DNA of 11,802 nt, from positions 1-11,802 of the forward strand of contig JBGCDR010000217.1 in NCBI GenBank assembly GCA_045105515.1, written 5' to 3'. Positions 203 to 11,705 of this stretch are shown piece by piece. The position numbers and the translations under genes are program-made. The stretch comes from Oligoflexales bacterium. GTDB taxonomy: Bacteria; Bdellovibrionota_B; Oligoflexia; Oligoflexales; Bog-1112. Position 1 is the stretch's first letter. Each line of letters begins with the position of its first letter. Under the pieces are notes generated by a model, which saw only the letters and a program-made list of their open reading frames with translations, made no database searches and was not told where the DNA came from.

Positions 203-1360
203 CTAAACATAGGATCCACGCTCGATCTTCTCGAGGATAATCTTCTCAAATATCTGCGGATCTTTTCCATCAACTGAAAAAAAAGCCTGTTGTTCGCATC
301 GCTTACGATTTTCGATAAGCCACTCCAAGATTTTAGCTAAACCCCTATTACGTCTACTTTTGAAGAACGGATCATTTTCAAGTGCGTCCCTCGCCTTTTT
401 GATTGATCTCATCTCACTGGCATCACCAGCAATAACATCATAAGCAAATAGATCATATTTTTTAAGATCCTCAGGAAGCACACCCAAAAATTTTACTTCT
501 GGTGCTGAAAAATCCTTATTTCGAATTAATGAAGCTGCAGACCCTGCCTTAAGAGTCCGATAAATATTTTGCAGAGTATAAGCATCTAGGTCTCCAAAGA
601 AAAAAATAGGAGTTCCGAGCTGATCTTGGATTCTTTTTACCCATCCTCTTACTGCATTGGAAGGAACTCCTTGAGCACCGATCACAATACACTTATGCCG
701 ACGAGTAATACCATTGGCAACAATAGTGTTAGCAGTGCCTTCAGATTCAACTACAAGACAAAAATCAATTTTCTTTTTTGCTGACAGAGTCAGATTTTGC
801 GGACGATTCTTTGGCATAAAGGGAGAGGTCCCTAACTTTGAAAGGTCAATTTCAGCAGTTTCTCCATTAGGCATGGTTTCCGTGACCACCAAATGCTGGG
901 AGTAAGTTTGTCCCCCTCGGTCATTCGCATAACAGTTGAGCTCTTCTCGGTAGCATTCCAAAATTTCGCAGATAAAGTCAATGACACTATCAGATTCGCT
1001 CTGATCGTCGAAATCAAGTGGCTTAAGATCTGGATTCTGCTTCAGTAAACCCTTACAGATATAATACAATTCGCGCTTCGTATTAACCCCTCCGGTACCA
1101 ACATTTCTGAGGAGTATTTCTAGCATAAATATCGCTCTTGACATTTTTTGCACCGAGCCAGCATTCAATTCGGTTTTTACTTTTTTAGAACCTGGAGTTA
1201 GAAACCCAAGACCTGGTGAATAAAGCGAGTTATCAAGAGAACATTTTGTTGCTGCTAGAACAGGTCTCTTGGCCTTTTCAAGATCGTTGAGGATCTTATC
1301 ACAAAGCTGCTTTGATATATAAGGGATTTCCGATTGTTTTCTAGTTGCATATTTTACCAT
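203..1360 (-). CDS. top6A: DNA topoisomerase VI subunit A (Spo11/Top6A family)
   Basis: Catalytic Tyr motif NTKRELYY, TOPRIM Glu in VVESEG, GAQGVP, DxD motif FGDLDAY, FLGV and C-terminal KRCEQQA. Lies directly downstream of top6B. The ATG at 1360 is preceded by GGAGAGGT; the ORF track start at 1381 is an alternative. Confidence 0.93.
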   Translation of the reverse strand: MVKYATRKQSEIPYISKQLCDKILNDLEKAKRPVLAATKCSLDNSLYSPGLGFLTPGSKKVKTELNAGSVQKMSRAIFMLEILLRNVGTGGVNTKRELYYICKGLLKQNPDLKPLDFDDQSESDSVIDFICEILECYREELNCYANDRGGQTYSQHLVVTETMPNGETAEIDLSKLGTSPFMPKNRPQNLTLSAKKKIDFCLVVESEGTANTIVANGITRRHKCIVIGAQGVPSNAVRGWVKRIQDQLGTPIFFFGDLDAYTLQNIYRTLKAGSAASLIRNKDFSAPEVKFLGVLPEDLKKYDLFAYDVIAGDASEMRSIKKARDALENDPFFKSRRNRGLAKILEWLIENRKRCEQQAFFSVDGKDPQIFEKIILEKIERGSYV

Positions 1361-1392
1361 GACAGACTCGCACCTCTCCATTAATAATCAAA

Positions 1393-3585
1393 CTATTTTT
1401 TAGCTTTTTTCTTTGTTTTCTTTTTAGAGTTTTGCTTGGATTGTTTCTTAACAACTGGCTTCTTTTTGCTTGCAGAATTTTTTTTCTCCACTCTCTTACT
1501 GGATTTTTTTACTACTTTTTTAGTAGGTTTCTTACTCGTCTTATTCGGTGCGTTCTTCGTTTCCTTTTTACCAGCCTTTTTCACTACTTTTTTTGATGGT
1601 TTCTTGTTGGTCTTTTTCTCAACTTTCTTAGCTACCTTCTTGCTGTTCTTTTTCTCAACTTTCTTAGTCACCTTCTTGCTGGTCTTTTTCCCAACTTTCT
1701 TAGTCACCTTCTTACCAGCCTTTTTCACTGCTTTTTTTGAGGTACTCTTTTTGGTAGTTTTGTCTTGATTTGCTTTAGATCTCTTTTTACGGATAGCTCC
1801 ACTTTTGCTTTTTTTGCCCTCAGAGCTTGCCACTGTATTCAATTCAGATTCTGCAGTTTGCAATTTAGTCTGATTATCTTGATCGAGCTCATTATCTTCT
1901 TCTTCGCTCTCGAGTAGCGAATCCTCTTCCTGAAACACAGTTAAGCGTTTTTTCTGCCCAGCTAAATGTTCGCTTAGTCGCTCTTCAGCTTTGGCAAGCT
2001 GTTTTTCCGTTTCTTTATGATCCCTGCCGAGTATTTTCTTAAGTCCTAATTCAGCTCGTTCTTTTCGCTTTTTTGGTGCTTCTAAAATGCGACACAAAGT
2101 TTCCACTAGGATAGGGCTAAATTTTTCAATGTGCTGAGTTTTAGCTTCTAATTCTTTAGCTTTGTGCTCACGCTTGAGGTGCCTAGACAATCTCTGGCCC
2201 GCAGTCATCAACGCTCTTCGAATTTCAGTAACCAGATCGTCTGCTGCATCGATGGTTTCTTTAGAGGCATTCTTAAACTTAATAAATGGGGAGATTACAC
2301 TCACTGCCATTATATAGGGTCCTATTGGTAGCAGCCCTCTTGATTGTCTTAATCCATAGCTTTTCCAGTTAACTGAGGTGATTGCTTTTACGATGGCACA
2401 GGCCGACTTATCGAACTGTAGTGGGACTCTGTTTGCAAAACGCAAAACACCCACTGGATTATCGGAGTCACCTGAACGCTCTTGCAAACGAGCAATTGCC
2501 ACTTCAACTTGCACAGGCTTCATATCACATATAGTAGGTTTACGACTCACTACTGAGAAATAATCAGTTGCTCCTAATCTTTGTATACTTAAAGCTAAGG
2601 CATCCTCACCAACAGCCATCACCGACTGTGTTGATGGAGCTCTTAATTGGGTTTTTTGCACCCCTGAAAAAATCTTTTTAAAATCATCATCTTTCAAACT
2701 TGAAATTGTTGCATTTCTACCTTTGCCTTTCCATTGCGCATTACTCAATATTTCGTCAACAACTTTATCACTTACTCGCGAAAATCCTCTTTTCAACCAC
2801 TCACTCAATTTGTACTTATTGAATAAGTGCGCATGAGAAATGAATTCCCCTAACTTCATGGTATGCAAATGAGGTGGTAGTGCAGGAGGAATTGTTGGGA
2901 CTTGCCCGGAAATTCGTTCTATAAATTGAGATTCCATATCTGGAAGCTGATAACGCAAACTCATGTGGGGGTTCAGCAATAGGTTTCCTCTAATATATGC
3001 TAGAATTCCTCCTTCCCCATTTAATTGTAGCCTTCCATCAAATTGAAAACTAACTTTGGTGCCATGAGGTTTGTCCCAAGCCACCATCTCCTTATTCTTG
3101 ATTATACCTTTATTATTTTTGAGGTCAGTCACCACCATGCAGGATAGTGCTTTACGTTGACCTTTACATTTCGTCAGGATTTTTGCGCCTGTTGCCGATG
3201 TCTGTAGAGCCCAAGTGGTTGCTGCGGAAATACCAATTCCTTGCTGACCTCGCGAGCATCGCCCCTTCCCAAACTTAGAAGAGGCAAGGTACTCACCAAA
3301 AACCATGGGAACCTGATTACTGTCTAAACCGGGACCATTGTCTTCCACGCTCAGCTCAATCCTATCCGTATTCCGCAGTGCACCTGCACCAAGCTTTTTA
3401 ATAATGATTTCGATTTCGGGAAGGATTTGGTGATCTTCACAGGCATCAAGAGAATTATCAACCGCCTCTTTCAAAGTCGTCAAAACTGCTTTTACAGGCG
3501 AGGAAAACCCTACCTGTTGTAGGTTTTTGGCAAAATACTCTGCGGTACTACTTTTTGTAATTGCTGATACTTTTTTCTTAGCCAT
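1393..3585 (-). CDS. top6B: DNA topoisomerase VI subunit B with acidic patch and long Lys-rich C-terminal tail
   Basis: AEYFAKNLQQVGF N-terminus; GHKL ATPase motifs KEAVDNSLDA, EDNGPG, SRGQQGIG and HGT; transducer motifs RFANRVPL, VNWKSYGL and FKNASKE. Confidence 0.96.
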   Translation of the reverse strand: MAKKKVSAITKSSTAEYFAKNLQQVGFSSPVKAVLTTLKEAVDNSLDACEDHQILPEIEIIIKKLGAGALRNTDRIELSVEDNGPGLDSNQVPMVFGEYLASSKFGKGRCSRGQQGIGISAATTWALQTSATGAKILTKCKGQRKALSCMVVTDLKNNKGIIKNKEMVAWDKPHGTKVSFQFDGRLQLNGEGGILAYIRGNLLLNPHMSLRYQLPDMESQFIERISGQVPTIPPALPPHLHTMKLGEFISHAHLFNKYKLSEWLKRGFSRVSDKVVDEILSNAQWKGKGRNATISSLKDDDFKKIFSGVQKTQLRAPSTQSVMAVGEDALALSIQRLGATDYFSVVSRKPTICDMKPVQVEVAIARLQERSGDSDNPVGVLRFANRVPLQFDKSACAIVKAITSVNWKSYGLRQSRGLLPIGPYIMAVSVISPFIKFKNASKETIDAADDLVTEIRRALMTAGQRLSRHLKREHKAKELEAKTQHIEKFSPILVETLCRILEAPKKRKERAELGLKKILGRDHKETEKQLAKAEERLSEHLAGQKKRLTVFQEEDSLLESEEEDNELDQDNQTKLQTAESELNTVASSEGKKSKSGAIRKKRSKANQDKTTKKSTSKKAVKKAGKKVTKKVGKKTSKKVTKKVEKKNSKKVAKKVEKKTNKKPSKKVVKKAGKKETKNAPNKTSKKPTKKVVKKSSKRVEKKNSASKKKPVVKKQSKQNSKKKTKKKAKK
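1558..1737 (-). repeat. Coding tandem repeat: 15 consecutive KKxx tetrapeptides, including three 36-bp (12-aa) higher-order copies
   Basis: Translation runs KKAV KKAG KKVT KKVG KKTS KKVT KKVE KKNS KKVA KKVE KKTN KKPS KKVV KKAG KKET. Positions 1606-1713 hold three imperfect 36-nt units, each with (t/c)caactttcttag(t/c)(c/t)accttctt on the plus strand. Confidence 0.9.
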
Positions 3586-3760
3586 TAGCCTCTCATACTA
3601 TAAATGGGCACTTTCCCTATTGATGAATATCGTGTAAAAGTTGTCTTATTAGCTGCTCTATTGAAGCATGCAAGCACTACTACCATCTAATTTTTGCTTA
3701 AAATTCCCTACTGGGAGAATTGGATATAACCAACCTTATCTAAAACACAGGAGTAACTCC

Positions 3761-4339
3761 ATGGCTATTAACTTACCTGAGCTTCCCTACGCCCTTGATG
3801 CCCTTGCACCTCATATCTCCAAGGAGACTCTTGAGTTCCATTATGGCAAGCACCACCAAGCTTACGTAACAAATTTGGGCAAGCTTATAAAGGGAACTGA
3901 GTTCGAAAATGCCTCCTTAGAAGAAATTGTCTTAAAATCTGAGGGCGGAGTTTTTAACAATGCCGCTCAAATCTGGAACCACACTTTCTATTGGAATAGC
4001 TTATCACCAAAAGGTGGCGGAGAACCAAACGGAAAAATTGCTGACGCTATTAATAAGGACTTTGGTTCTTTTCAATCCTTCAAGGAAGCTTTTACTAAGG
4101 CAGCTGCTACTCTATTTGGTTCAGGCTGGGCATTTCTGGTCCAAGATGCAAGTGGAACATTGTCTATTACTCAGGAACCCAATGCAGGTAACCCCTTAAC
4201 TAAGGACCTAAGTCCCATCTTAACTTGTGATGTATGGGAGCATGCCTACTATATTGACTACAGAAATGCTCGCCCGAAATATATTGAAACCTTTTGGAAC
4301 CTCGTCAACTGGGACTTTGCATCAGGTAATTTGAAATAG
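3761..4339 (+). CDS. sodB: Superoxide dismutase [Fe]
   Basis: LPELPY, HYGKHH, Fe-type [14 protein letters not shown] and DVWEHAYY metal-ligand motifs. SD AGGAG at 3749-3753 supports the ATG at 3761 rather than 3668. Confidence 0.96.
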
Positions 4340-4342
4340 ATC

Positions 4343-5398
4343 TTAAGGCGTTTCCTTCTTTGGAGTTTCCAACTCCACCTCAAATTCTGGTTTTGCATCC
4401 CTGCTTATAAGCTCGAGGACAACTTGAGATATTGGCTTTTTATCATAGATAACCTGGTAGACGGCATTCGTAATTGGAGTGCTAACATTTAGACTCTTTG
4501 AGAGTTTCTGTGCAGAAAGCGTCGTCGTCACCCCTTCCGCGACAGATCCAATTTGACCTAGCGCCTCATCCAAAGAACCCCCTTGTCCCATAATGTACCC
4601 AACCGAAAAATTGCGACTTTTTTCCGAAGAGCAGGTCAAAAACAAATCACCTACACCGCCGAGCCCCTTAAAGGTAAGTGGGTTTGCTCCCACTGCAACT
4701 CCTACTCTAGTCATCTCTGCCAACCCTCGTGTGATGAGGGTAGCTCTACTATTAGCTTGAAAACCAAGACCAGCACACGCCCCAGCTGCAATAGCAATTA
4801 CATTCTTCATCGCCCCTGCGACCTCAAGTCCGATAGGGTCGTTGGAGGTGTATGCTCTAAACTTTGGTGAATGAAAAACATCTTGAGCCCACTCTGCTCG
4901 CACGGTTACCCTGGAAGCTACTGAAACACCAGTAGGTTGTTTCTTAGCGACCTCAATAGCAAAACTGGGTCCAGATAGGGAAACCATATGGTGAGAGATA
5001 AATGTTCCACAGATTTCAGCCAAAATATCCGAAGGTAGCTTTTCTGTGCCTACTTCAATTCCTTTAGCTGCGCATACTAGCAACTGATCAATATGCATTT
5101 TGTCACTTATTTGCTCTACGACCATCCGCACATATTGAGTAGGAATTGCAATGACAATCGCATCGTATGCCTGGATGGGAGCTTCTTCCAAGCGGGTAAA
5201 AGCTTTTACTCGTGGAGATAGAGATATTTCCTTTAAATATTTAGGATTTATATGCTTACTATTGATACCTTCAGCAACCTCTGGAGACCTTGCCCATATT
5301 TCAACTCGATGTCCCTGACATGCTAAATGTTGGCCAAGGCATGTTCCAAAGTTACCAGCTCCAAGCACCAAAATATGTTGGTTATTTCTTGTTTGCAT
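4343..5398 (-). CDS. gpsA: NAD(P)H-dependent glycerol-3-phosphate dehydrogenase
   Basis: Rossmann VLGAGNFGT, AAKGIE, LSGPSFAIEV, GAMKNVIAIAAG, GLGGVGDLFLTCSSEKSRN and VAEGV. GGAG lies 9 nt upstream of the ATG at 5398. Confidence 0.96.
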   Translation of the reverse strand: MQTRNNQHILVLGAGNFGTCLGQHLACQGHRVEIWARSPEVAEGINSKHINPKYLKEISLSPRVKAFTRLEEAPIQAYDAIVIAIPTQYVRMVVEQISDKMHIDQLLVCAAKGIEVGTEKLPSDILAEICGTFISHHMVSLSGPSFAIEVAKKQPTGVSVASRVTVRAEWAQDVFHSPKFRAYTSNDPIGLEVAGAMKNVIAIAAGACAGLGFQANSRATLITRGLAEMTRVGVAVGANPLTFKGLGGVGDLFLTCSSEKSRNFSVGYIMGQGGSLDEALGQIGSVAEGVTTTLSAQKLSKSLNVSTPITNAVYQVIYDKKPISQVVLELISRDAKPEFEVELETPKKETP

Positions 5399-5451
5399 TT
5401 GTCTAAGCTCCAAAGTGGCGATATACTACAGACCCCGTACCCAAGAAAAAA

Positions 5452-5469
5452 AGGATGTCATGACTTCCT
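5452..5469. promoter_or_regulatory. 18-bp operator-like palindrome in the divergent gpsA/nuoJ intergenic region
   Basis: AGGATGTCA|TGACTTCCT, with 8 of 9 positions pairing and no spacer. Confidence 0.45.
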
Positions 5470-5494
5470 ATTTATCAGTTTTACTCACTATAGT
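5465..5494 (+). promoter_or_regulatory. Candidate sigma70-like promoter for nuoJKLMN-lgt
   Basis: TTCCTA (5465-5470), 18-bp spacer, TATAGT (5489-5494), about 85 bp upstream of nuoJ. Confidence 0.3.
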
Positions 5495-5579
5495 CTTTGG
5501 CTTAGTAGCGGGCTCGATAATACGAGCTTCATCCCGCTTCTTGGCCATGGCTCTTTCCCTCCTTACCTAGGTGTGTTTT

Positions 5580-6128
5580 ATGGATGATTCCTTGATATTT
5601 TACGCGCTCGCCATCTTAAGTGTAATATTTTCGCTCCTGCTTATCTCCCAGAAGCAAGTTGTAAAAGCAACTGTTTATCTATTATTCCACTTGTGTTTCA
5701 CGGCAGGCATCTATGCATATCTTGGAGCCGAGATTGTTGCAGTGATGCAGATTATCCTTTATACCACTGCAATTTTAGCACTTTTTATATTTGCTAGAAA
5801 GCTCTCAAACTTTGAGCTAACATGCAAAGAGGAATTAATAAAACCTGGCAAGTTTGAACTCATAAGCACCTCTTTATTAATCATTGGGATGATAGTTTTT
5901 TCTTGGGCTGGATTCTTTTCGAAGGAACTTGGCTCTAAAACCAGCTCTCATCTTTTAGAAGAAATAAGTATCTTCGACTTTAGCTTACAAATATTCTCAC
6001 GTTTCAAATGGCCCCTTACAGTAAGTTTCCTCTTATTTGTGATGACAATGGTCGCCTGCAAAATCACTAGCAAAAATAGCAATAAAAGCTCTAGTTCAGC
6101 TGAAGGAGGTCCTCTTGGTCCCTATTGA
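5580..6128 (+). CDS. nuoJ: NADH-quinone oxidoreductase subunit J-like (divergent)
   Basis: About 5 hydrophobic segments. AGIYAYLGAEIVAVMQIILYTTAILALFIF matches NuoJ TM2-TM3. Lies directly upstream of nuoK. AGGTG precedes the ATG at 5580. Confidence 0.85.
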   Translation: MDDSLIFYALAILSVIFSLLLISQKQVVKATVYLLFHLCFTAGIYAYLGAEIVAVMQIILYTTAILALFIFARKLSNFELTCKEELIKPGKFELISTSLLIIGMIVFSWAGFFSKELGSKTSSHLLEEISIFDFSLQIFSRFKWPLTVSFLLFVMTMVACKITSKNSNKSSSSAEGGPLGPY

Positions 6129-6417
6129 GCACTACCTCATATTAGCATGTCTCCTATTTACGATCGGAGTGATTGGAGTATTAGTTCGAAAAAATATTTT
6201 TTTTATTTTAATGTCCATTCAATTGATTTTGAATGCAACTAACCTTGTTTTTATAGCTGCTTCAAGGCACATTGGTAATCTTGATGGAGAAGTATTCATG
6301 ATTTTCATTATCGCAATTGCGAGCTGTCAAGCAGCAGTAGGATTATCTATAGTGATTTCACTATTTCGTCAATACCGGTCTATTAATAGTGACTTTTTTA
6401 AAATTTTAAGAGGTTAA
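6115..6417 (+). CDS. nuoK: NADH-quinone oxidoreductase subunit K (E36Q/E72Q variant)
   Basis: 100 aa with 3 TMs: YLILACLLFTIGVIGVLVRKN, ILNA, DGEVF, AAVGL and C-terminal LRG. TTG start after a perfect SD AAGGAGGT; overlaps the nuoJ stop. Confidence 0.95.
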   Translation: MVPIEHYLILACLLFTIGVIGVLVRKNIFFILMSIQLILNATNLVFIAASRHIGNLDGEVFMIFIIAIASCQAAVGLSIVISLFRQYRSINSDFFKILRG

Positions 6418-6438
6418 GAAATAAGACAAGGATTAGAT

Positions 6439-7167
6439 ATGGTCTGCTTGATGCTTTTTTTACCACTATTTGGGGCTGTTATTAGTAACATCATAAATCA
6501 TAAATTCGTCAATACAAGCTTTTATTTTTTTTTATGCTTGCTAGCTTCAGCTTCGTTTTTGACAAGTATTCTGGCTTATATTGACCTTTTTAGACAGGGG
6601 CACCAAGAACTCATATTAGCAAGCATTACTTGGATAAAAATAGGATCTATCAACATTCCTTTTGAATTAATATTTAATCAACTATCAAGTATTATGTGCA
6701 TAGTTGTTACAGGCCTTGGGACCCTTGTCTTTTTTTATACTATATTTGTAAAAAAAGATATAAATGCCCTTTACTTGCGTTTTTTTTCACTTGTTAACTT
6801 GTTGGTTTTTACCCTTCTCATAGCAGTGCTTGCTAACAGCATGCCTGCGTTATTGATCTCCTGGCAAGGAGTGTTTTTTTGCAGTTTTATACTAAGCAAT
6901 CATTATTTTTCTAATAAATATTTATTCCTTAGAAACTCCCGAATTTGTCAACTATTAGAGTTGAGCACAAGACCATTTGTTTATTTATCCAGCTTATCTT
7001 TGAAAATGGATAAATTGGGTATCAACAGGTTGATTAACTCAATCTCTCACCTAATATCGGCATCTAGTGGTGTCACTAGTTTTTCTATGGAAGGAAGTAT
7101 TCAGCGCCATGCAAGCTCCATGATTTTAGGGTTTGTGGTTCTTTTAGTGCTGGCATTCGCAATTTAG
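6439..7167 (+). CDS. nuoL: Internally deleted mini-NuoL (N-terminal TM1-5 fused to C-terminal amphipathic helix and last TM)
   Basis: LPLFGA, TWIKIG beta-hairpin region, FNQLSSIMCIVVTGLG, YLRFF and SWQGVFFCSFIL match the NuoL N-terminus. RPFVYLS...MDKLGINRLIN...GSIQRHASSMILGFVVLL matches the NuoL C-terminus. It is 242 aa against ~610+ typical and sits between nuoK and nuoM. Confidence 0.85.
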   Translation: MVCLMLFLPLFGAVISNIINHKFVNTSFYFFLCLLASASFLTSILAYIDLFRQGHQELILASITWIKIGSINIPFELIFNQLSSIMCIVVTGLGTLVFFYTIFVKKDINALYLRFFSLVNLLVFTLLIAVLANSMPALLISWQGVFFCSFILSNHYFSNKYLFLRNSRICQLLELSTRPFVYLSSLSLKMDKLGINRLINSISHLISASSGVTSFSMEGSIQRHASSMILGFVVLLVLAFAI

Positions 7168-7183
7168 AATCAAAGGAACCAAG

Positions 7184-8767
7184 ATGGATTGGATAAATAA
7201 TCATATTATAACTATAAGCATCACAATTGCATTGATAACATCATTACTTTGTATAGCTGCTCCAAGCTCATTTATAGCTCTTAGAATTAGCCTTGTAGGT
7301 TCCGCAGCATGTTTTTTCTCAGCACTACATATCTGGTACCATTATCAAGCATCATTGGGAAGTATCCAATTTAATGAGTCCTATGAATGGATAGGACTAT
7401 TTGGCATTAGCTATCAGGTGGGAGTGGATGGACTAAACCTTCTATTCATAGTTTTATCAACTTTCTTAACACCTATTGTCATTCTTAGTTTGTGGGACAA
7501 GCAAATTAAGAATAAAAAAATCTTGCTAAGCTTGGTGATGTTTCTAGAAGCTTCCATTTTAGGAGCACTAGCAGCTCTAGATTTGTTCTTTTTTTATTTT
7601 TGTTGGGAAGTCATGATCATCCCCGTATACTTAATCATTGGTTTCTGGGGTGGAAAGAAACGGTTTCAAACTAGTAAAAAATTAATACTCTGTAATGCAT
7701 GCGGATCTATTTTTATGTTTGTCGGCATCATTGCTCTCTATATAAAACATACTGGAGAATTCGGGTTTTATAGTGCCAGCTTGATAGATTTATTGAAAAT
7801 TAATTCTCTAGATTTAAGCACTCAGAAGTGGTTGTTTGCTGCCTTTACTTTTGCTTTTGCTGTGAGAATCCCGGTATGGCCCCTCCACACATGGCTAGTC
7901 TCAGCATACTCACAAGCACCCTTTTTTGGCTCCATCATTCTTTCGGGAGTAGTTCTTAAAATAGCCTGCTACGGATTCTTAAGATTTGTAATCCCCTTAT
8001 TTCCTGAAGCATTTACTTTTTTTGCACCCTCGACATTAATTCTGGCGATAATTGGATTTATCTTTGTAGCACTAGCTGCTTGGAAACAAGAAGATATTAA
8101 GAAGCTAGTAGCATATGCATCAATTTCACATTTGAGTCTCGCTTTTGTCGGCTGTGTGCTTATCAATGGATGTGATATGTCTCCAGAAGCCTTAATGGGT
8201 GCAGTATACAGAATCATAAGTCATGGGATTTCATTTAGTGCACTTTTTATTATTCTATCCAACCTTTACGGTAAAAAATTGAGCTCAAAAACGAATTCCT
8301 GTGAAAAATCACAAAGACTAAATCGCTATTTAAAAGTGGCCGTTATGTTGATCACCCTCGATTGCATGGGAATTCCTGGAACCGGAGGCTTTATTAGTCA
8401 ATTTCTAATATTAAAAGAAATATACACAAGCAGTGGAGTCACAGGAACATTTATAAGCTTAGGTGTTCTTGCTAGTGCTGCTCATATGTTTAAAATCTAT
8501 AAAAAACTACTTAATTCAAAAAATCAAGCTCACACAAACTTAGTTGAGCTATCGATTAGAGAGAAACTACTCTCTATGTCGCTCATCTGTATAGCTCTAG
8601 CTATGGGAATCTATCCTGAGTTAATATTTTCAAAAGTGAGGCCGACCATTGAACATTTTGCGAATAACTATCAGACTTACCTGCTAAGAACAGAAAACGA
8701 ATTAACTAGAGTTCCTAAGCATATAAAAATGGATATTTATACATCTCTTATAAAGGGAGAAAAATAG
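7184..8767 (+). CDS. nuoM: NADH-quinone oxidoreductase subunit M (divergent)
   Basis: GVDGL, DLFFFYFCWEVMIIPVYLIIGFWGG, FAVRIPVWPLHTWL, LKIACYGFLRF, DIKKLVAYASISH, SHG, GIPGTGGF and MGIYP. Confidence 0.93.
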   Translation: MDWINNHIITISITIALITSLLCIAAPSSFIALRISLVGSAACFFSALHIWYHYQASLGSIQFNESYEWIGLFGISYQVGVDGLNLLFIVLSTFLTPIVILSLWDKQIKNKKILLSLVMFLEASILGALAALDLFFFYFCWEVMIIPVYLIIGFWGGKKRFQTSKKLILCNACGSIFMFVGIIALYIKHTGEFGFYSASLIDLLKINSLDLSTQKWLFAAFTFAFAVRIPVWPLHTWLVSAYSQAPFFGSIILSGVVLKIACYGFLRFVIPLFPEAFTFFAPSTLILAIIGFIFVALAAWKQEDIKKLVAYASISHLSLAFVGCVLINGCDMSPEALMGAVYRIISHGISFSALFIILSNLYGKKLSSKTNSCEKSQRLNRYLKVAVMLITLDCMGIPGTGGFISQFLILKEIYTSSGVTGTFISLGVLASAAHMFKIYKKLLNSKNQAHTNLVELSIREKLLSMSLICIALAMGIYPELIFSKVRPTIEHFANNYQTYLLRTENELTRVPKHIKMDIYTSLIKGEK

Positions 8768-8768
8768 C

Positions 8769-10235
8769 TTGAATTTCATACCACAGATCCACCAAGAATT
8801 CATTGATGAATATTTATCTGTATTAGTTCTTTCAATCGGATCTATGATAAATATATTAATCTCTTACAATAAAGATCTAGCAGAGAATACAATATCTAAA
8901 ACCATCTTGTTTTCTTCACTTGGATTCGCTCTGTTCTTTTGTCTACATGGAAGCCTTGGAAATCTATTAGAATACTCTGCCTTCACAAGTCTAATACAAT
9001 GCTTATTAATTACTACAACTCTTACTCTATGTTTCCTAGCATCAAGCTCCCATTTAGATTTATATATCTTTAAATATGATGTTGTTAGTTTACTACTCTT
9101 ATCTCTAGTAGGAATGATAGTTCTAGCCACGACCGATGACCTATTTACAATGTTTTTAGGAATGGAGCTTAGCTTATTAGCACTTTGCGCTCTTTCCGGG
9201 AATATTCGACCAAACCGATTTAACCAAGAAGGGGCTCTAAAGTTTTTTATCCTCGGAAGTTTCGCAAGTTCGATATTTATTTTTGGCTTAGCAATGGTGT
9301 ACGCAAGTACTGGAGAGATACACCTGAATACATTGATTAAGTCCTTAAATGGAACTTCTCAACTAGTTTTATGGGCACGCATGGGCCTTGTAGCTATGAT
9401 CGTAGGCCTCGCTTTTATACTCAATCTTTTTCCTTTTCAACTGTGGGCAGCAGATACTTATGAAGCCTCACCAACAATCATAAGTGCCTATTTATTTATT
9501 TCCTTTAAAGTAATAATTATAAGCAAATTTATTAAGATTTTTGGACTTGGCATGTCTGATTTAGAATCACCGTGGCTACAGATAATGATGCTTTTGGCTG
9601 GAATGTCCCTCATTTTTGGAACTCTACTGTCTCTGGTGCAGACCAATATTAAACGTCTCTTGGCTTACGCAGGTATCAGCCAGGGTGGATATTTAACAAT
9701 GGCAGCAGGGGCATTGTCAACTACAAGGTCTCATGCTAGCGAGTCAATATTGTTTTATCTCATAACATATACCGTGACTTCTATTCTTGCATTTGGGATT
9801 CTGATGAGGTTGGAATCCGAGCAAAAGCAAAATCTCTGCATAGATGACCTGCGAGGCTTAGCTCACACTAAACCTTGGTATGCTCTGGGTTTAACAATCG
9901 CTCTTTTTAGTTTTGCAGGAATCCCACCTACAGCAGGATTTATAGCTAAGTTTATGCTTTTCTCCTCTGCGCTACAAAATCAACAGCAGGTAATTCTTGT
10001 GGTGCTTGCTGCAATTTGTAACGCCATAGCACTATTTGTCTACCTCCGCATTGTCGCTTATATGTATATGCAATATGAACCTAATGGTAAGTTGCTCAAA
10101 TCGAAACTCTTTTTGCTACCAAGTATGATCCTAGTTTTAGCTAGCTTTGCCACGATCCTTCTTGGTACCCTGCTTCCCGGTAAAACCTTTGAATTTATCG
10201 TACCTATGTTAGAATCGAAGCATAGTAATCCTTAA
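8769..10235 (+). CDS. nuoN: NADH-quinone oxidoreductase subunit N (divergent)
   Basis: DLFTMFLGMEL, EGALKFFILGSFAS, PFQLWAADTYEASP, QTNIKRLLAY, SFAGIPPTAGFIAKF and YLRIV. TTG start 1 bp after the nuoM stop, with SD GGGAG upstream. Confidence 0.93.
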   Translation: MNFIPQIHQEFIDEYLSVLVLSIGSMINILISYNKDLAENTISKTILFSSLGFALFFCLHGSLGNLLEYSAFTSLIQCLLITTTLTLCFLASSSHLDLYIFKYDVVSLLLLSLVGMIVLATTDDLFTMFLGMELSLLALCALSGNIRPNRFNQEGALKFFILGSFASSIFIFGLAMVYASTGEIHLNTLIKSLNGTSQLVLWARMGLVAMIVGLAFILNLFPFQLWAADTYEASPTIISAYLFISFKVIIISKFIKIFGLGMSDLESPWLQIMMLLAGMSLIFGTLLSLVQTNIKRLLAYAGISQGGYLTMAAGALSTTRSHASESILFYLITYTVTSILAFGILMRLESEQKQNLCIDDLRGLAHTKPWYALGLTIALFSFAGIPPTAGFIAKFMLFSSALQNQQQVILVVLAAICNAIALFVYLRIVAYMYMQYEPNGKLLKSKLFLLPSMILVLASFATILLGTLLPGKTFEFIVPMLESKHSNP

Positions 10236-10253
10236 TATCCAATGGTAAATTCC

Positions 10254-11081
10254 ATGTATCCAATACTATTCGAATGGAATGGGTTCATTATCCCTGCATG
10301 GCATTTCTTCTATATGCTAGCTGCAATAGCTGGATTATTTTTTCTCTTTCATATAAACCTAAAATGGAACATCGAACTAAATCCCAAGCACCTATCTGGA
10401 CTCTATGCATGTTCTTACATAGGTGGTTATTTTGGTGCCCGCGCACTGTCAATATACATCGATGAATGGAATAAGGTCATAGACTATTCCGATATTTTTT
10501 GGCTGCTATTTTCCTTTGGTCCAATGACTTTTTATGGAGGGATGTTTGGTGCTAGCGCAGGAGCAATCCTGTTTGCTAATATTAAAGGAATTCATAAATT
10601 AAAGATTCTTGATCTAGGCATACCATGCGGATTACTTGGGCTTTGCATTGGCCGAATTGGATGCTTTTTAAATGGAGATGATTACGGCATTGCAATTTCC
10701 GAAATGATGACAGGTCAAACTCCATGGTGGGCCGTGACCTTTTCTAACCATTACGATAAAATTCCCAGGGTTCCTATCCAGATCATTGAAAGCTCATTGG
10801 TATTTATTCTTGTGATATCAACTTATGTTTTAAAAAATAGATTTGCAAATAAATTTTCATCAGGACTTTGCGGTTACATTTTGATAATTTCATATGCTCT
10901 AATTAGATTTTTATTAGAGTATTTCCGAGGTGATTTGAGGGGATGGGTGATCGAGGGTCACCTCAGCTCCTCTCAATTTATAAGCCTAGCTATCGTCACA
11001 ACACTAGGCCCAATTTTTATTTTCTTCAAACGAAAAAGAAAGAATTATAGATCACAAATGCCTGGCTCGTCGCAGCCATAA
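10254..11081 (+). CDS. lgt: Prolipoprotein diacylglyceryl transferase family protein
   Basis: MYPILF N-terminus, FGAR, MTFYGG, IGRIGCFLNGDDYG, PIQIIES, YALIRFLLEYFRGD and SSSQFIS. The ATG at 10242 is an alternative start. Confidence 0.9.
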   Translation: MYPILFEWNGFIIPAWHFFYMLAAIAGLFFLFHINLKWNIELNPKHLSGLYACSYIGGYFGARALSIYIDEWNKVIDYSDIFWLLFSFGPMTFYGGMFGASAGAILFANIKGIHKLKILDLGIPCGLLGLCIGRIGCFLNGDDYGIAISEMMTGQTPWWAVTFSNHYDKIPRVPIQIIESSLVFILVISTYVLKNRFANKFSSGLCGYILIISYALIRFLLEYFRGDLRGWVIEGHLSSSQFISLAIVTTLGPIFIFFKRKRKNYRSQMPGSSQP

Positions 11082-11572
11082 CCATCATCTTCTTCAATAG
11101 GTTCTCCATTTTTTGAGAAGAACAGACCTTGGATTGAGCCAAGACCAACACACCATCCTGAATATCTTGTCACACCAACAGACAGCTTCATATCTAGGGT
11201 TGGATTGATACTTGCGCCTACATCAATCGTTCCTCCAACTGCATCTCCGAGCATAAGACCAACTTCAGCTTTTCCCATTACGGAAAGAAACTCTTCTAGG
11301 CTAAACCCAACACCGGCAGCTTCTACAGTACCCTCAGCTCTACAAACTCCAAGTTTTGCGCCCAGGCCAGCCATATGCACATCTAGGTCGCGTGTATATG
11401 AATTACCAACTACATCTTCACAAGTTACAACTGCATCACCTTTTCCAAACTCAGCAACTATAGCTACGGATTTTACATTGTAGTCCATTGAACAGTGGAC
11501 AAGTGCAGCCTGTGATTGCGCAGCTGCCATTAAACCAGCAGACATTAGCAATGAAGATAATACCTTTTTCAT
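11045..11572 (-). CDS. Hypothetical secreted protein (Sec signal peptide, 6 Cys, Gly-rich beta-type body, acidic tail)
   Basis: SD GGAGGT 4 nt before the ATG at 11572. MKKVLSSLLMSAGLMAAAQSQA is a typical signal peptide ending in SQA. The ORF is 175 aa. Confidence 0.8.
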   Translation of the reverse strand: MKKVLSSLLMSAGLMAAAQSQAALVHCSMDYNVKSVAIVAEFGKGDAVVTCEDVVGNSYTRDLDVHMAGLGAKLGVCRAEGTVEAAGVGFSLEEFLSVMGKAEVGLMLGDAVGGTIDVGASINPTLDMKLSVGVTRYSGWCVGLGSIQGLFFSKNGEPIEEDDGYGCDEPGICDL

Positions 11573-11705
11573 ACCTACCTCCAAAAAATAATTGTTAATT
11601 TTCATAGATACTTTAAGATGAGGACTATCTCAATTACAACTTAAAAGAGCTTTAGTGATAGAACAGAGTTGTCTAACAATTGATAAAACCCTTTGGTAGC
11701 TTAAT

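Follow-up and report, generated by a model that had tools for sequence, protein, structure and literature searches.

Glutamine at both membrane glutamate positions of NuoK in a probable orphan remnant of the complex I membrane arm from an Oligoflexales bacterium

The stretch of DNA analyzed here, called the window, is the complete 11,802-nucleotide contig JBGCDR010000217.1 of an Oligoflexales bacterium (assembly GCA_045105515.1; contig C217 of genome G000). The genome is a metagenome bin of 6.29 Mb in 461 contigs, estimated to be 90.9% complete and 4.8% contaminated. We examined its nuoK gene, which belongs to the membrane arm of respiratory complex I and encodes glutamine at both positions where NuoK proteins carry a membrane glutamate. 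Genomes used for comparison have G-numbers: G012 belongs to the same genus as G000, G011 to another genus of the same family, and G015 is the nearest relative with canonical nuo genes.

The nuo locus is bordered upstream by gpsA (4343-5413, minus strand; Pfam NAD_Gly3P_dh) and downstream by lgt (10242-11081, plus strand; Pfam LGT), which opens 6 bases past nuoN and, from its start context, is likely translated from the ATG at 10254. Between them lie five plus-strand genes, together called the remnant for reasons given below. nuoJ (5580-6128; Pfam Oxidored_q3, 60 bits) forms part of an open reading frame (ORF) beginning with GTG at 5571; its likely start is the ATG at 5580, as in G012. nuoK (6115-6417) encodes 100 residues from a TTG start and was assigned by Pfam PF00420 (Oxidored_q2) and by alignment with Escherichia coli NuoK. 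The Shine-Dalgarno-like sequence GAAGGAGG (6102-6109, plus strand) lies 5 bases ahead of this start, and the G012 gene has GATGGAGG at the matching position. There follow a shortened nuoL of 242 residues, here mini-nuoL (6439-7167; Pfam and NuoL profile), nuoM (7184-8767, 527 residues) and nuoN (8769-10235, 488 residues), the last two recognized by Pfam and alignment. Shine-Dalgarno-like sequences are found upstream of nuoK, mini-nuoL, nuoM and nuoN. The five frames are open over 185, 100, 242, 527 and 488 codons. The 4.7 kb from 5571 to 10235 contain 78-130 stops per reading frame, and outside the nuo frames no open run exceeds 164 codons. A promoter and terminator scan of 5300-11200 returned 17 promoter-like sites against 21.2 expected.

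Codon 36 of nuoK (6220-6222) is CAA, codon 59 (6289-6291) is GAA and codon 72 (6328-6330) is CAA. Residues 1-100 align without gaps to residues 1-100 of E. coli NuoK (3rko_K), which places Gln, Glu and Gln opposite E36, Q59 and E72, exactly as read in a preliminary description of the window. Both membrane-embedded glutamates that mark a complex I-type NuoK are therefore missing. The protein matches PF00420 with 85.4 bits (cut-off 26.1) over residues 6-99 of 100, and a hydropathy scan gives three hydrophobic segments near 6-24, 28-46 and 63-81. The statement of the same description that E36 is nearly invariant was confirmed in three samples. Among the 119 nearest homologues from a word-indexed search, 118 have E36 (the remaining one has Q), all have E72 and 101 have Q59. 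A species-genome scan with the sequence P0163 as query gave 53 loci, with E36 in 53, E72 in 52 (the other being an alignment gap) and Q59 in 46. For 80 NuoK-like stretches from 79 genomes of the order the corresponding counts are 76, 77 and 75.

The preliminary description had allowed that GAA codons might have been misread. Three sequencing runs from one study, which carry the label plant metagenome and may be where this DNA came from, yielded contigs of 10,008 bases (depths 12, 37 and 41) that match window positions 5500-10300 identically. Sequencing error as the cause of Q36/E59/Q72 was rejected on account of these identical contigs, and the CAA, GAA and CAA codons stand. Short contigs of low depth from the same runs share about 91% identity with the window at 6212-6388, 9086-9250 and 10095-10240; a rarer second relative carrying the same remnant operon lives in these samples. 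Over 6212-6388 it has eight listed differences in nuoK, of which five are synonymous third-position changes and three fall in two codons, which we read as I66V and V80A. Its codons 59 and 72 are unchanged, and codon 36 lies about 10 bases from the contig end, where differences are unlisted.

The substitutions had also been described as targeted changes in an otherwise very canonical protein, a view that did not hold. As canonical reference we used 18 nuo operons of the same order, and a column was called near-invariant if it was invariant in these 18 or in all but one. Window NuoK deviates at 13 of 39 near-invariant columns. Its identity to the 18 canonical sequences is 49-60% (median 54%), compared with 59-86% (median 69%) among the canonical sequences themselves; against an MrpC-like chain it reached E = 1.5e-4. 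Near-invariant columns are altered to a similar or greater extent in its neighbors, namely 20 of 38 in NuoJ, 31 of 94 in NuoN and 82 of 203 in NuoM. With 13 of 39 columns changed in NuoK, and conserved residues lost in NuoJ, mini-L, NuoM and NuoN as well, the changes cannot be called targeted.

The largest alteration is in nuoL. Residues 1-160 of mini-L correspond to positions 2-160, and residues 190-238 to positions 595-643, of a 646-position profile built from the 18 canonical NuoL sequences; about 434 core positions are deleted in frame. What is left is no full-length NuoL with antiporter core and lateral helix, only the two end pieces, the C-terminal one of which we take to be the end of the lateral helix and the last transmembrane helix. 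The glutamate of the fifth transmembrane helix is Gln in mini-L (residue 143; 6865-6867, CAA). NuoJ, aligned to its E. coli counterpart, retains Y59 and has Thr for G61. With E. coli axis residues numbered as in the available parts of bioRxiv 10.64898/2026.01.27.702182 and PMC9271201, NuoM carries K228R (7865-7867) at the position of K234 and E406Q (8399-8401) at that of E407, the glutamate of transmembrane helix 12. H242Y and H366L are further changes in NuoM, while E142, K259 and H316 are retained. NuoN carries K217I (9417-9419), H224Q and H305Q and retains E133, K247 and K394. The Lys/Glu axis of E. coli (K234 and E407 of NuoM; K217, E133, K247 and K395 of NuoN) is thus incomplete, with K228R, E406Q and K217I. 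Taking the five proteins together, a window residue can be aligned to 12 near-invariant Glu columns; it is not Glu in six of these, and in four of the six it is Gln.

The organization of the locus was compared with that in relatives. In G015 gpsA is followed by the divergent genes nuoA-nuoH-nuoJ-nuoK-nuoL (650 residues)-nuoM-nuoN. gpsA adjoins the nuo membrane operon in nine canonical genomes (G015, G009, G010, G004, G005, G008, G038, G084 and G024), and lgt follows nuoN in six of them (G009, G010, G004, G005, G038 and G024). Because of this gene order, the window locus appears to be the ancestral operon minus nuoA-nuoH and minus the middle of nuoL. The nuo genes of the order are split. The operon beside gpsA (L037, on contig C126 of G015) has no nuoI between nuoH and nuoJ, and the peripheral-arm genes lie elsewhere; NuoB of G015 is encoded alone beside a ferritin gene (L210, contig C45).

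The same remnant is present in two relatives. A syntenic 16.4-kb contig of G012 (94% complete) carries gpsA, nuoJ, nuoK, a mini-L of 236 residues, a single antiporter-like gene and lgt. The antiporter-like protein is 46% identical to window NuoN and 28% to window NuoM, and nuoM has therefore been lost in G012. In G011 (88% complete) we found gpsA, a nuoJ-like gene (178 residues), a nuoK-like gene (101 residues), a 107-residue ORF, a nuoN-like gene (468 residues), an extra ORF and lgt. Of the NuoL profile, the 107-residue mini-L retains a match to the C-terminal 80 positions alone, nuoM is absent, and G011 still matches NuoK and Proton_antipo_M. The extra ORF (L036, 5509-6330, minus strand) encodes 273 residues with no Pfam family, and only in G011 does it separate the nuoN-like gene from lgt. 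Losses along the proton path differ among the three genomes: in the order G000, G012, G011, NuoN position 217 is I, K and R, position 247 is K, K and Q, and position 305 is Q, E and H. NuoK position 72 is Q, E and Q, and position 59 is E, Q and N.

Profile searches for NuoH (PF00146), NuoA (PF00507), NuoB (PF01058) and NuoD (PF00346) gave no match in G000, G012 or G011; the search did not extend to NuoC, E, F, G or I. Among 14 control genomes the NuoH and NuoD searches were positive in 11 and the NuoA search in 9, and NuoB and NuoD were both found in G015. A tblastn search of the whole of G000 with NuoA, NuoH and NuoB of G015 returned nothing at E ≤ 0.01. At the locus itself gpsA directly abuts nuoJ where relatives have nuoA-nuoH. 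The 166-base spacer between them (5414-5579) is read as a deletion scar at the nuoA and nuoH site, and no similarity to either protein was detected anywhere in the genome. Neither NuoH and NuoA nor the quinone-reduction module (NuoB and NuoD) of a working complex I is encoded, and redox-driven pumping by the remnant is excluded by this gene content. Membership in a hydrogenase-type complex was also considered, and rejected because no NuoB or NuoD family protein was found. According to the preliminary description, the connection from the E-channel to NuoN is broken or rerouted; it had also asked whether the E-channel acids of the partner subunits are lost. NuoA and NuoH were themselves not found. 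The link is indeed broken, for a more drastic reason than the one envisaged, as neither the E-channel nor the redox module is encoded; a rerouting found no support.

G000 carries the full nqrABCDEF domain set of a Na+-translocating NADH:quinone oxidoreductase (Na+-NQR) as six intact ORFs on contig C77 (L211, 871-6814, minus strand), and NqrA is also present in G012 and G011. The only further Proton_antipo_M (PF00361) protein of G000 is DabB. It belongs to a DabB-DabA pair of the inorganic carbon uptake type on contig C283 (L003, 1-3663), beside a divergent LysR-type regulator. Searches for MrpF (PF04066) and MrpG (PF03334) gave no match in G000, G012 or G011, and MrpE and MrpB were not searched; on these results the genome lacks parts of an Mrp set, which comprises MrpE, MrpF, MrpG and a full MrpA. 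Four CPA-type exchanger matches were found in G000.

Among 95 genomes of the order, NuoK is present in 79 and NuoH in 78. NuoK without NuoH occurs only in G000, G012 and G011; every other NuoK-bearing genome has NuoH. Q occupies position 36 in all three of these NuoH-less genomes, and genomes with NuoH gave 77 stretches, of which 76 have E there; within the order, Q36 thus goes with loss of NuoH. The 76 strong NuoK matches from NuoH-bearing genomes all keep both E36 and E72. The single other stretch (G020:C183:3375-3671, L179; 26% identity, E = 3.3e-4), from a genome with NuoH, has Leu36 and Thr72 and probably represents another NuoK/MrpC superfamily member. NqrA was detected in 17 of the 95 genomes, 15 of them lacking NuoH; G037 and G071 carry both. 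Conversely, 15 of the 17 genomes without NuoH carry NqrA, the exceptions being G018 (72% complete) and G054. This distribution indicates that complex I has been replaced by Na+-NQR in several branches, most of which left nothing detectable by these queries. Proton_antipo_M had no match in the NQR-bearing family members G016 (92% complete) and G013, and the single match in G017 covers part of the profile only, as does that of the DabB-type protein of G000.

A profile of the three remnant NuoK sequences was searched against 1.84 billion cluster representatives and gave 5254 matches, in the best 150 of which residues were tabulated. In these 150, position 36 is E in 143, Q in 5, A in 1 and G in 1, and position 72 is E in 139, Q in 7 and K in 2, with 2 gaps. 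The Q36/Q72 sequences among them are the G011 fragment, two remnant-like sequences from DNA low in G+C (P0122 and P0130), and P0163 and P0232 from a high-GC lineage unrelated to that of the window. Q36 and Q72 are rare residues. P0124 and P0262 have Lys at position 72, and the P0262 cluster includes a Candidatus Omnitrophota record. In these five Q36/Q72 sequences position 59 is Q, S, Q, Q and N, in none of them E; Q36/Q72 thus recurs, and E59 does not accompany it. The species-genome scan with P0163 found no close relative (best identity 59%). When P0163, the members of its cluster and P0232 were aligned and used to scan metagenomes, 23 loci were found, and Q stood at neither 36 nor 72 in any of them. 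With P0122 as query, the best matches in a phylum-wide search of 131 genomes were G000 and G012, at 50% identity. The suggestion that E59 is compensatory found no support in these comparisons, in which the three remnants have E, Q and N at this position and G036 has E59 beside intact E36 and E72.

The remnant genes evolve fast. Between G000 and G012 the nonsynonymous divergence (dN) is 0.026 for top6A, 0.049 for gpsA, 0.073 for sod and 0.245 for lgt, and it is 0.263 for nuoK, 0.489 for nuoN, 0.531 for nuoJ and 0.750 for mini-nuoL. The dN ratio of nuoK to gpsA is 5.4 in this pair, compared with 0.42 and 0.32 in the canonical pairs G009-G010 and G004-G005. For nuoK to lgt the ratio is 1.07, compared with 0.20 in both canonical pairs, and for nuoN to lgt it is 2.0, compared with 0.68 in both. 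Remnant genes thus change at about 3 to 17 times the rate that functional nuo genes would be expected to show. The proportion of synonymous differences (pS) is saturated in every gene (0.6-0.8; 0.66-0.78 in the remnant genes). That of nonsynonymous differences (pN) in the remnant genes is 0.22-0.47, with amino acid identities of 30-63% (NuoK 63%, NuoN 46%). The frames are open in all three remnant genomes. Since pN lies well below pS and identity persists despite saturated synonymous sites, the comparison points to purifying selection that is weakened but real and that acts on the proteins themselves, not only on the openness of their frames.

A fold of G012 NuoN with G012 mini-L scored 0.34, and the best of three controls 0.00. 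The mark used is passed by 116 of 157 solved complexes and by 2 of 215 mismatched pairs; at scores of 0.60 or below, by 18 of the 157 and by both mismatches. Runs shared at least 90% of contacts, and the predicted local distance difference test value (pLDDT) of the partner was at least 67. The fold was made with our own alignments, and because similar complex I interfaces are already solved the pass may reflect those known structures. It lends a NuoN-mini-L pairing weak support of little weight.

On this evidence nuoK is probably a gene of an orphan complex I membrane-arm remnant, consisting of nuoJ, nuoK, an internally deleted nuoL, nuoM and nuoN, left after replacement of the enzyme by Na+-NQR; Q36 and Q72 would mark a lost pump, not a rewired one. 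The ancestor would have had gpsA, nuoA-H-J-K-L-M-N and lgt at the locus, with the peripheral-arm genes elsewhere. After acquiring or keeping Na+-NQR as NADH:quinone oxidoreductase, the lineage would have dispensed with nuoA and nuoH, with the peripheral arm and with the nuoL antiporter core; the sister species and the second genus would have lost nuoM in addition. In the relay model set out in the available part of bioRxiv 10.64898/2026.01.27.702182, the signal runs from NuoH E157 via NuoA D79 to NuoK E36/E72, then opens the NuoN K217-E133 pair and continues to NuoM and NuoL; a role for E36 and E72 in the relay is also given in PMC9271201. With the donors, the quinone site and the far end at NuoL gone, the buried NuoK carboxylates would no longer serve a relay. 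E36 and E72 could then have been exchanged for the uncharged isostere Gln, as could the glutamates of transmembrane helix 5 in mini-L and helix 12 in NuoM, because the relay is gone while fold and packing may still matter. Q36 and Q72 accordingly read as a consequence of orphaning, and E59, 13 residues before position 72, as an incidental change near the membrane surface. The remnant proteins are probably still made and, we infer, may still form a membrane sub-complex under weakened purifying selection. Any role would be non-respiratory and is speculative: a residual passive or secondary ion path centered on NuoN, or a purely structural one.

Several observations weigh against this interpretation or limit it. 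The gene absences rest on metagenome bins of 88-94% completeness, although they are consistent across three bins and direct at the locus boundaries. Trees of GpsA (15 rows) and NuoN (21 rows) do not resolve, the G011 branch being about 10 changes per column long; the remnant in the two genera (g1 and g6) may have one origin or two, and its Q36 may be inherited or convergent. Synonymous saturation precludes a real dN/dS estimate. The proton-path losses differ by genome, and these lineage-specific changes in NuoN therefore look more like relaxed constraint than like a new shared mechanism. The decay is ongoing, with nuoM lost in G012 and G011, no remnant in G016 and a partial match in G017, which argues for a relic on its way out. 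Open frames could in part reflect the need to transcribe lgt downstream. With four CPA-type exchangers present, nothing requires the remnant to be an antiporter.

The rival explanations differ in how much of this pattern they can accommodate. That the missing nuo genes sit on unassembled or unbinned contigs, and the remnant is an artefact of incomplete bins, is suggested by the fragmentation of the three bins (461, 710 and 100 contigs, 88-94% complete) and by the scattering of nuo genes in the order, with NuoB of G015 standing alone. However, the only place for nuoA and nuoH is between gpsA and nuoJ, and all three genomes have sequence across it; both the nuoL deletion and the nuoM loss fall inside contigs; and four families are missing from three independent bins when all other NuoK-bearing genomes have NuoH. 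We regard such an artefact as very improbable. Still less credence, close to none, can be given to a complex I that still pumps protons, its route from the E-channel to NuoN redirected and its lost glutamates made good by E59. Its appeal lies in the NuoK protein, which keeps its length, three hydrophobic segments and a strong Pfam match, and in the E133, K247 and K394 retained by NuoN. It would have to operate in genomes lacking NuoA, B, D and H, with a nuoL devoid of antiporter core, a contiguous gpsA-nuoJ junction and an NQR in place. Moreover, E59 is not common to the other remnants or Q36/Q72 sequences, and from the alignment with E. coli NuoK it would lie 13 residues before position 72, near a helix end.

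Decay without function is a more serious contender, though we still hold it unlikely: the five genes would be dead relics whose frames are open by chance, or because stops would reduce transcription or translation of the essential gene lgt. The several-fold faster evolution compared with canonical nuo genes fits this, as do the stepwise losses (the nuoL core, then nuoM in G012 and G011, with no remnant left in G016) and the lineage-specific disappearance of key charges. All three genomes have lgt behind nuoN and on its strand, and nuoJKLMN of Gilliamella is likewise interpreted as a remnant of genomic reduction in the available part of PMC11325843. Yet unconstrained sequences should be unrecognizable once synonymous sites are saturated, and here NuoK is still 63% and NuoN 46% identical, with pN far below pS; even G011 has its NuoK and Proton_antipo_M matches. 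Polarity on lgt accounts for open frames and not for conserved residues, and the nuoK differences of the 91% relative are mostly synonymous. The same purifying selection is what speaks for the opposite idea, a working, redox-independent, Mrp-like Na+/H+ antiporter that links the NQR sodium gradient to a proton gradient and for which the Glu to Gln changes are adaptive. In MrpC the two complex I glutamates have His37 and His40 as counterparts, according to PMC7419157, so that ion transport in the superfamily can do without the Glu pair. In addition, the remnant occurs only alongside NQR, and Q36/Q72 recurs in other lineages. Against it stand the missing MrpF and MrpG, the lack of any further antiporter-like subunit besides DabB, the loss of NuoN K217 (Ile in the window) and K247 (Gln in G011), the four CPA-type exchangers, and NQR-bearing relatives that live without the remnant. 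This makes an Mrp-like antiporter quite improbable.

A bolder form of the orphan-remnant interpretation may be put forward tentatively, as possible though on balance doubtful. The remnant would be a selected, redox-independent membrane device that has outlived complex I, in which the interface carboxylates (NuoK 36/72, mini-L helix 5, NuoM helix 12) were deliberately neutralized to Gln, while E133, K247 and K394 of NuoN and the last NuoL helix were kept. Orbaceae would have reached a parallel nuoJ-onwards solution on their own, and unrelated lineages of high GC also show Q36/Q72. If this were true, the distal membrane arm would lead a second existence of its own, such as that of a minimal MrpD-like ion path.

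As to what the glutamines mean, no naturally built pump that works without E36 and E72 is found here, and a claim on the mechanism of complex I loses its force. Loss of the glutamates in the order is confined to loss of the rest of the enzyme, consistent with the mutagenesis literature; E36 and E72 mutants were reportedly studied by Kervinen (2004) and Kao (2005). Our literature search turned up no paper on E36Q in NuoK. The natural charge-neutralized variants are useful for modeling the electrostatic relay. Interest in the locus is moderate and lies mainly in the apparent retention of the remnant: three diverged genomes keep an open and conserved nuoJ, nuoK, NuoL stump and nuoN long after the redox part was lost.

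The remainder of the window holds genes unconnected with complex I. A bacterial topoisomerase VI is encoded on the minus strand (203-3585) by top6A (203-1381, 392 residues) and top6B (1393-3585, 730 residues), both identified as ORFs with Pfam matches and both 86-97% identical to their G012 counterparts. The B subunit has a lysine-repeat-rich C-terminal tail of about 150 residues, also found in G012. The following sodB-like ORF (3668-4339, plus strand; ORF and Pfam) encodes an Fe/Mn superoxide dismutase with a 31-residue N-terminal extension, and an internal ATG is probably the true start. At 11045-11605 (minus strand) lies a gene for a 186-residue protein with a signal-peptide-like N-terminus, the C-terminal residues CDL and no Pfam family. 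It overlaps the 3' end of lgt by 37 bases in antisense and is 75% identical in G012 (L035, 2959-3510, plus strand). The G000 bin of 6.29 Mb, with its contamination estimate of 4.8%, far exceeds the 4.6 Mb of the sister species and the 1.8-4.0 Mb of other family members.

Several known systems can be set beside the remnant. With canonical NuoK/ND4L/Nqo11 (E. coli 3RKO/7NYR chain K) the window protein shares PF00420, its length, a gapless alignment and its place between nuoJ and nuoL. It differs in having Gln for both membrane glutamates and in its 13 changed near-invariant columns, and its genome lacks NuoH and NuoA, the subunits feeding these glutamates. Most published operons for a partial complex I are without nuoEFG, as far as the available text of PMC4453560 goes. 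These NuoEFG-less forms (Campylobacter, cyanobacterial NDH-1, archaeal Fpo) are, like the remnant, derivatives without the NADH-oxidizing module, but they keep the quinone module, NuoH, NuoA and the pump, of which the remnant keeps none. The Mrp antiporter and the membrane-bound hydrogenase module offer a likeness in MrpC, which is likewise without the Glu pair (His37/His40; PMC7419157). The window proteins, however, are of the complex I type, MrpF and MrpG were not found, and NuoK has Gln, not His, at 36 and 72, although these exact columns were not aligned to MrpC.

The closest match is in Orbaceae. In each of the 95 Gilliamella genomes, and in Orbaceae at large, nuoJKLMN is all that is left, interpreted as genome-reduction remnants in the part of PMC11325843 that was available. 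Both systems retain genes from nuoJ onwards only, without catalytic subunits and across a whole group of relatives; the window locus is likewise an orphan nuoJ-to-nuoN set conserved in related genomes. The Oligoflexales remnant differs in belonging to another phylum, in its mini-nuoL, in the loss of nuoM from two of three genomes and in the replaced NuoK glutamates. Na+-NQR is present here, whereas the term 'nqr' is absent from the available text of PMC11325843. The match is one of state and not of common descent. In our literature search, a mini-NuoL, stepwise nuoM loss and systematic Glu-to-Gln neutralization in such remnants did not turn up. The window remnant is of the same kind as Orbaceae nuoJKLMN and adds these three features to it, and together with the remnants of the bee-gut Orbaceae it poses the question whether the distal membrane arm can assemble and act alone.

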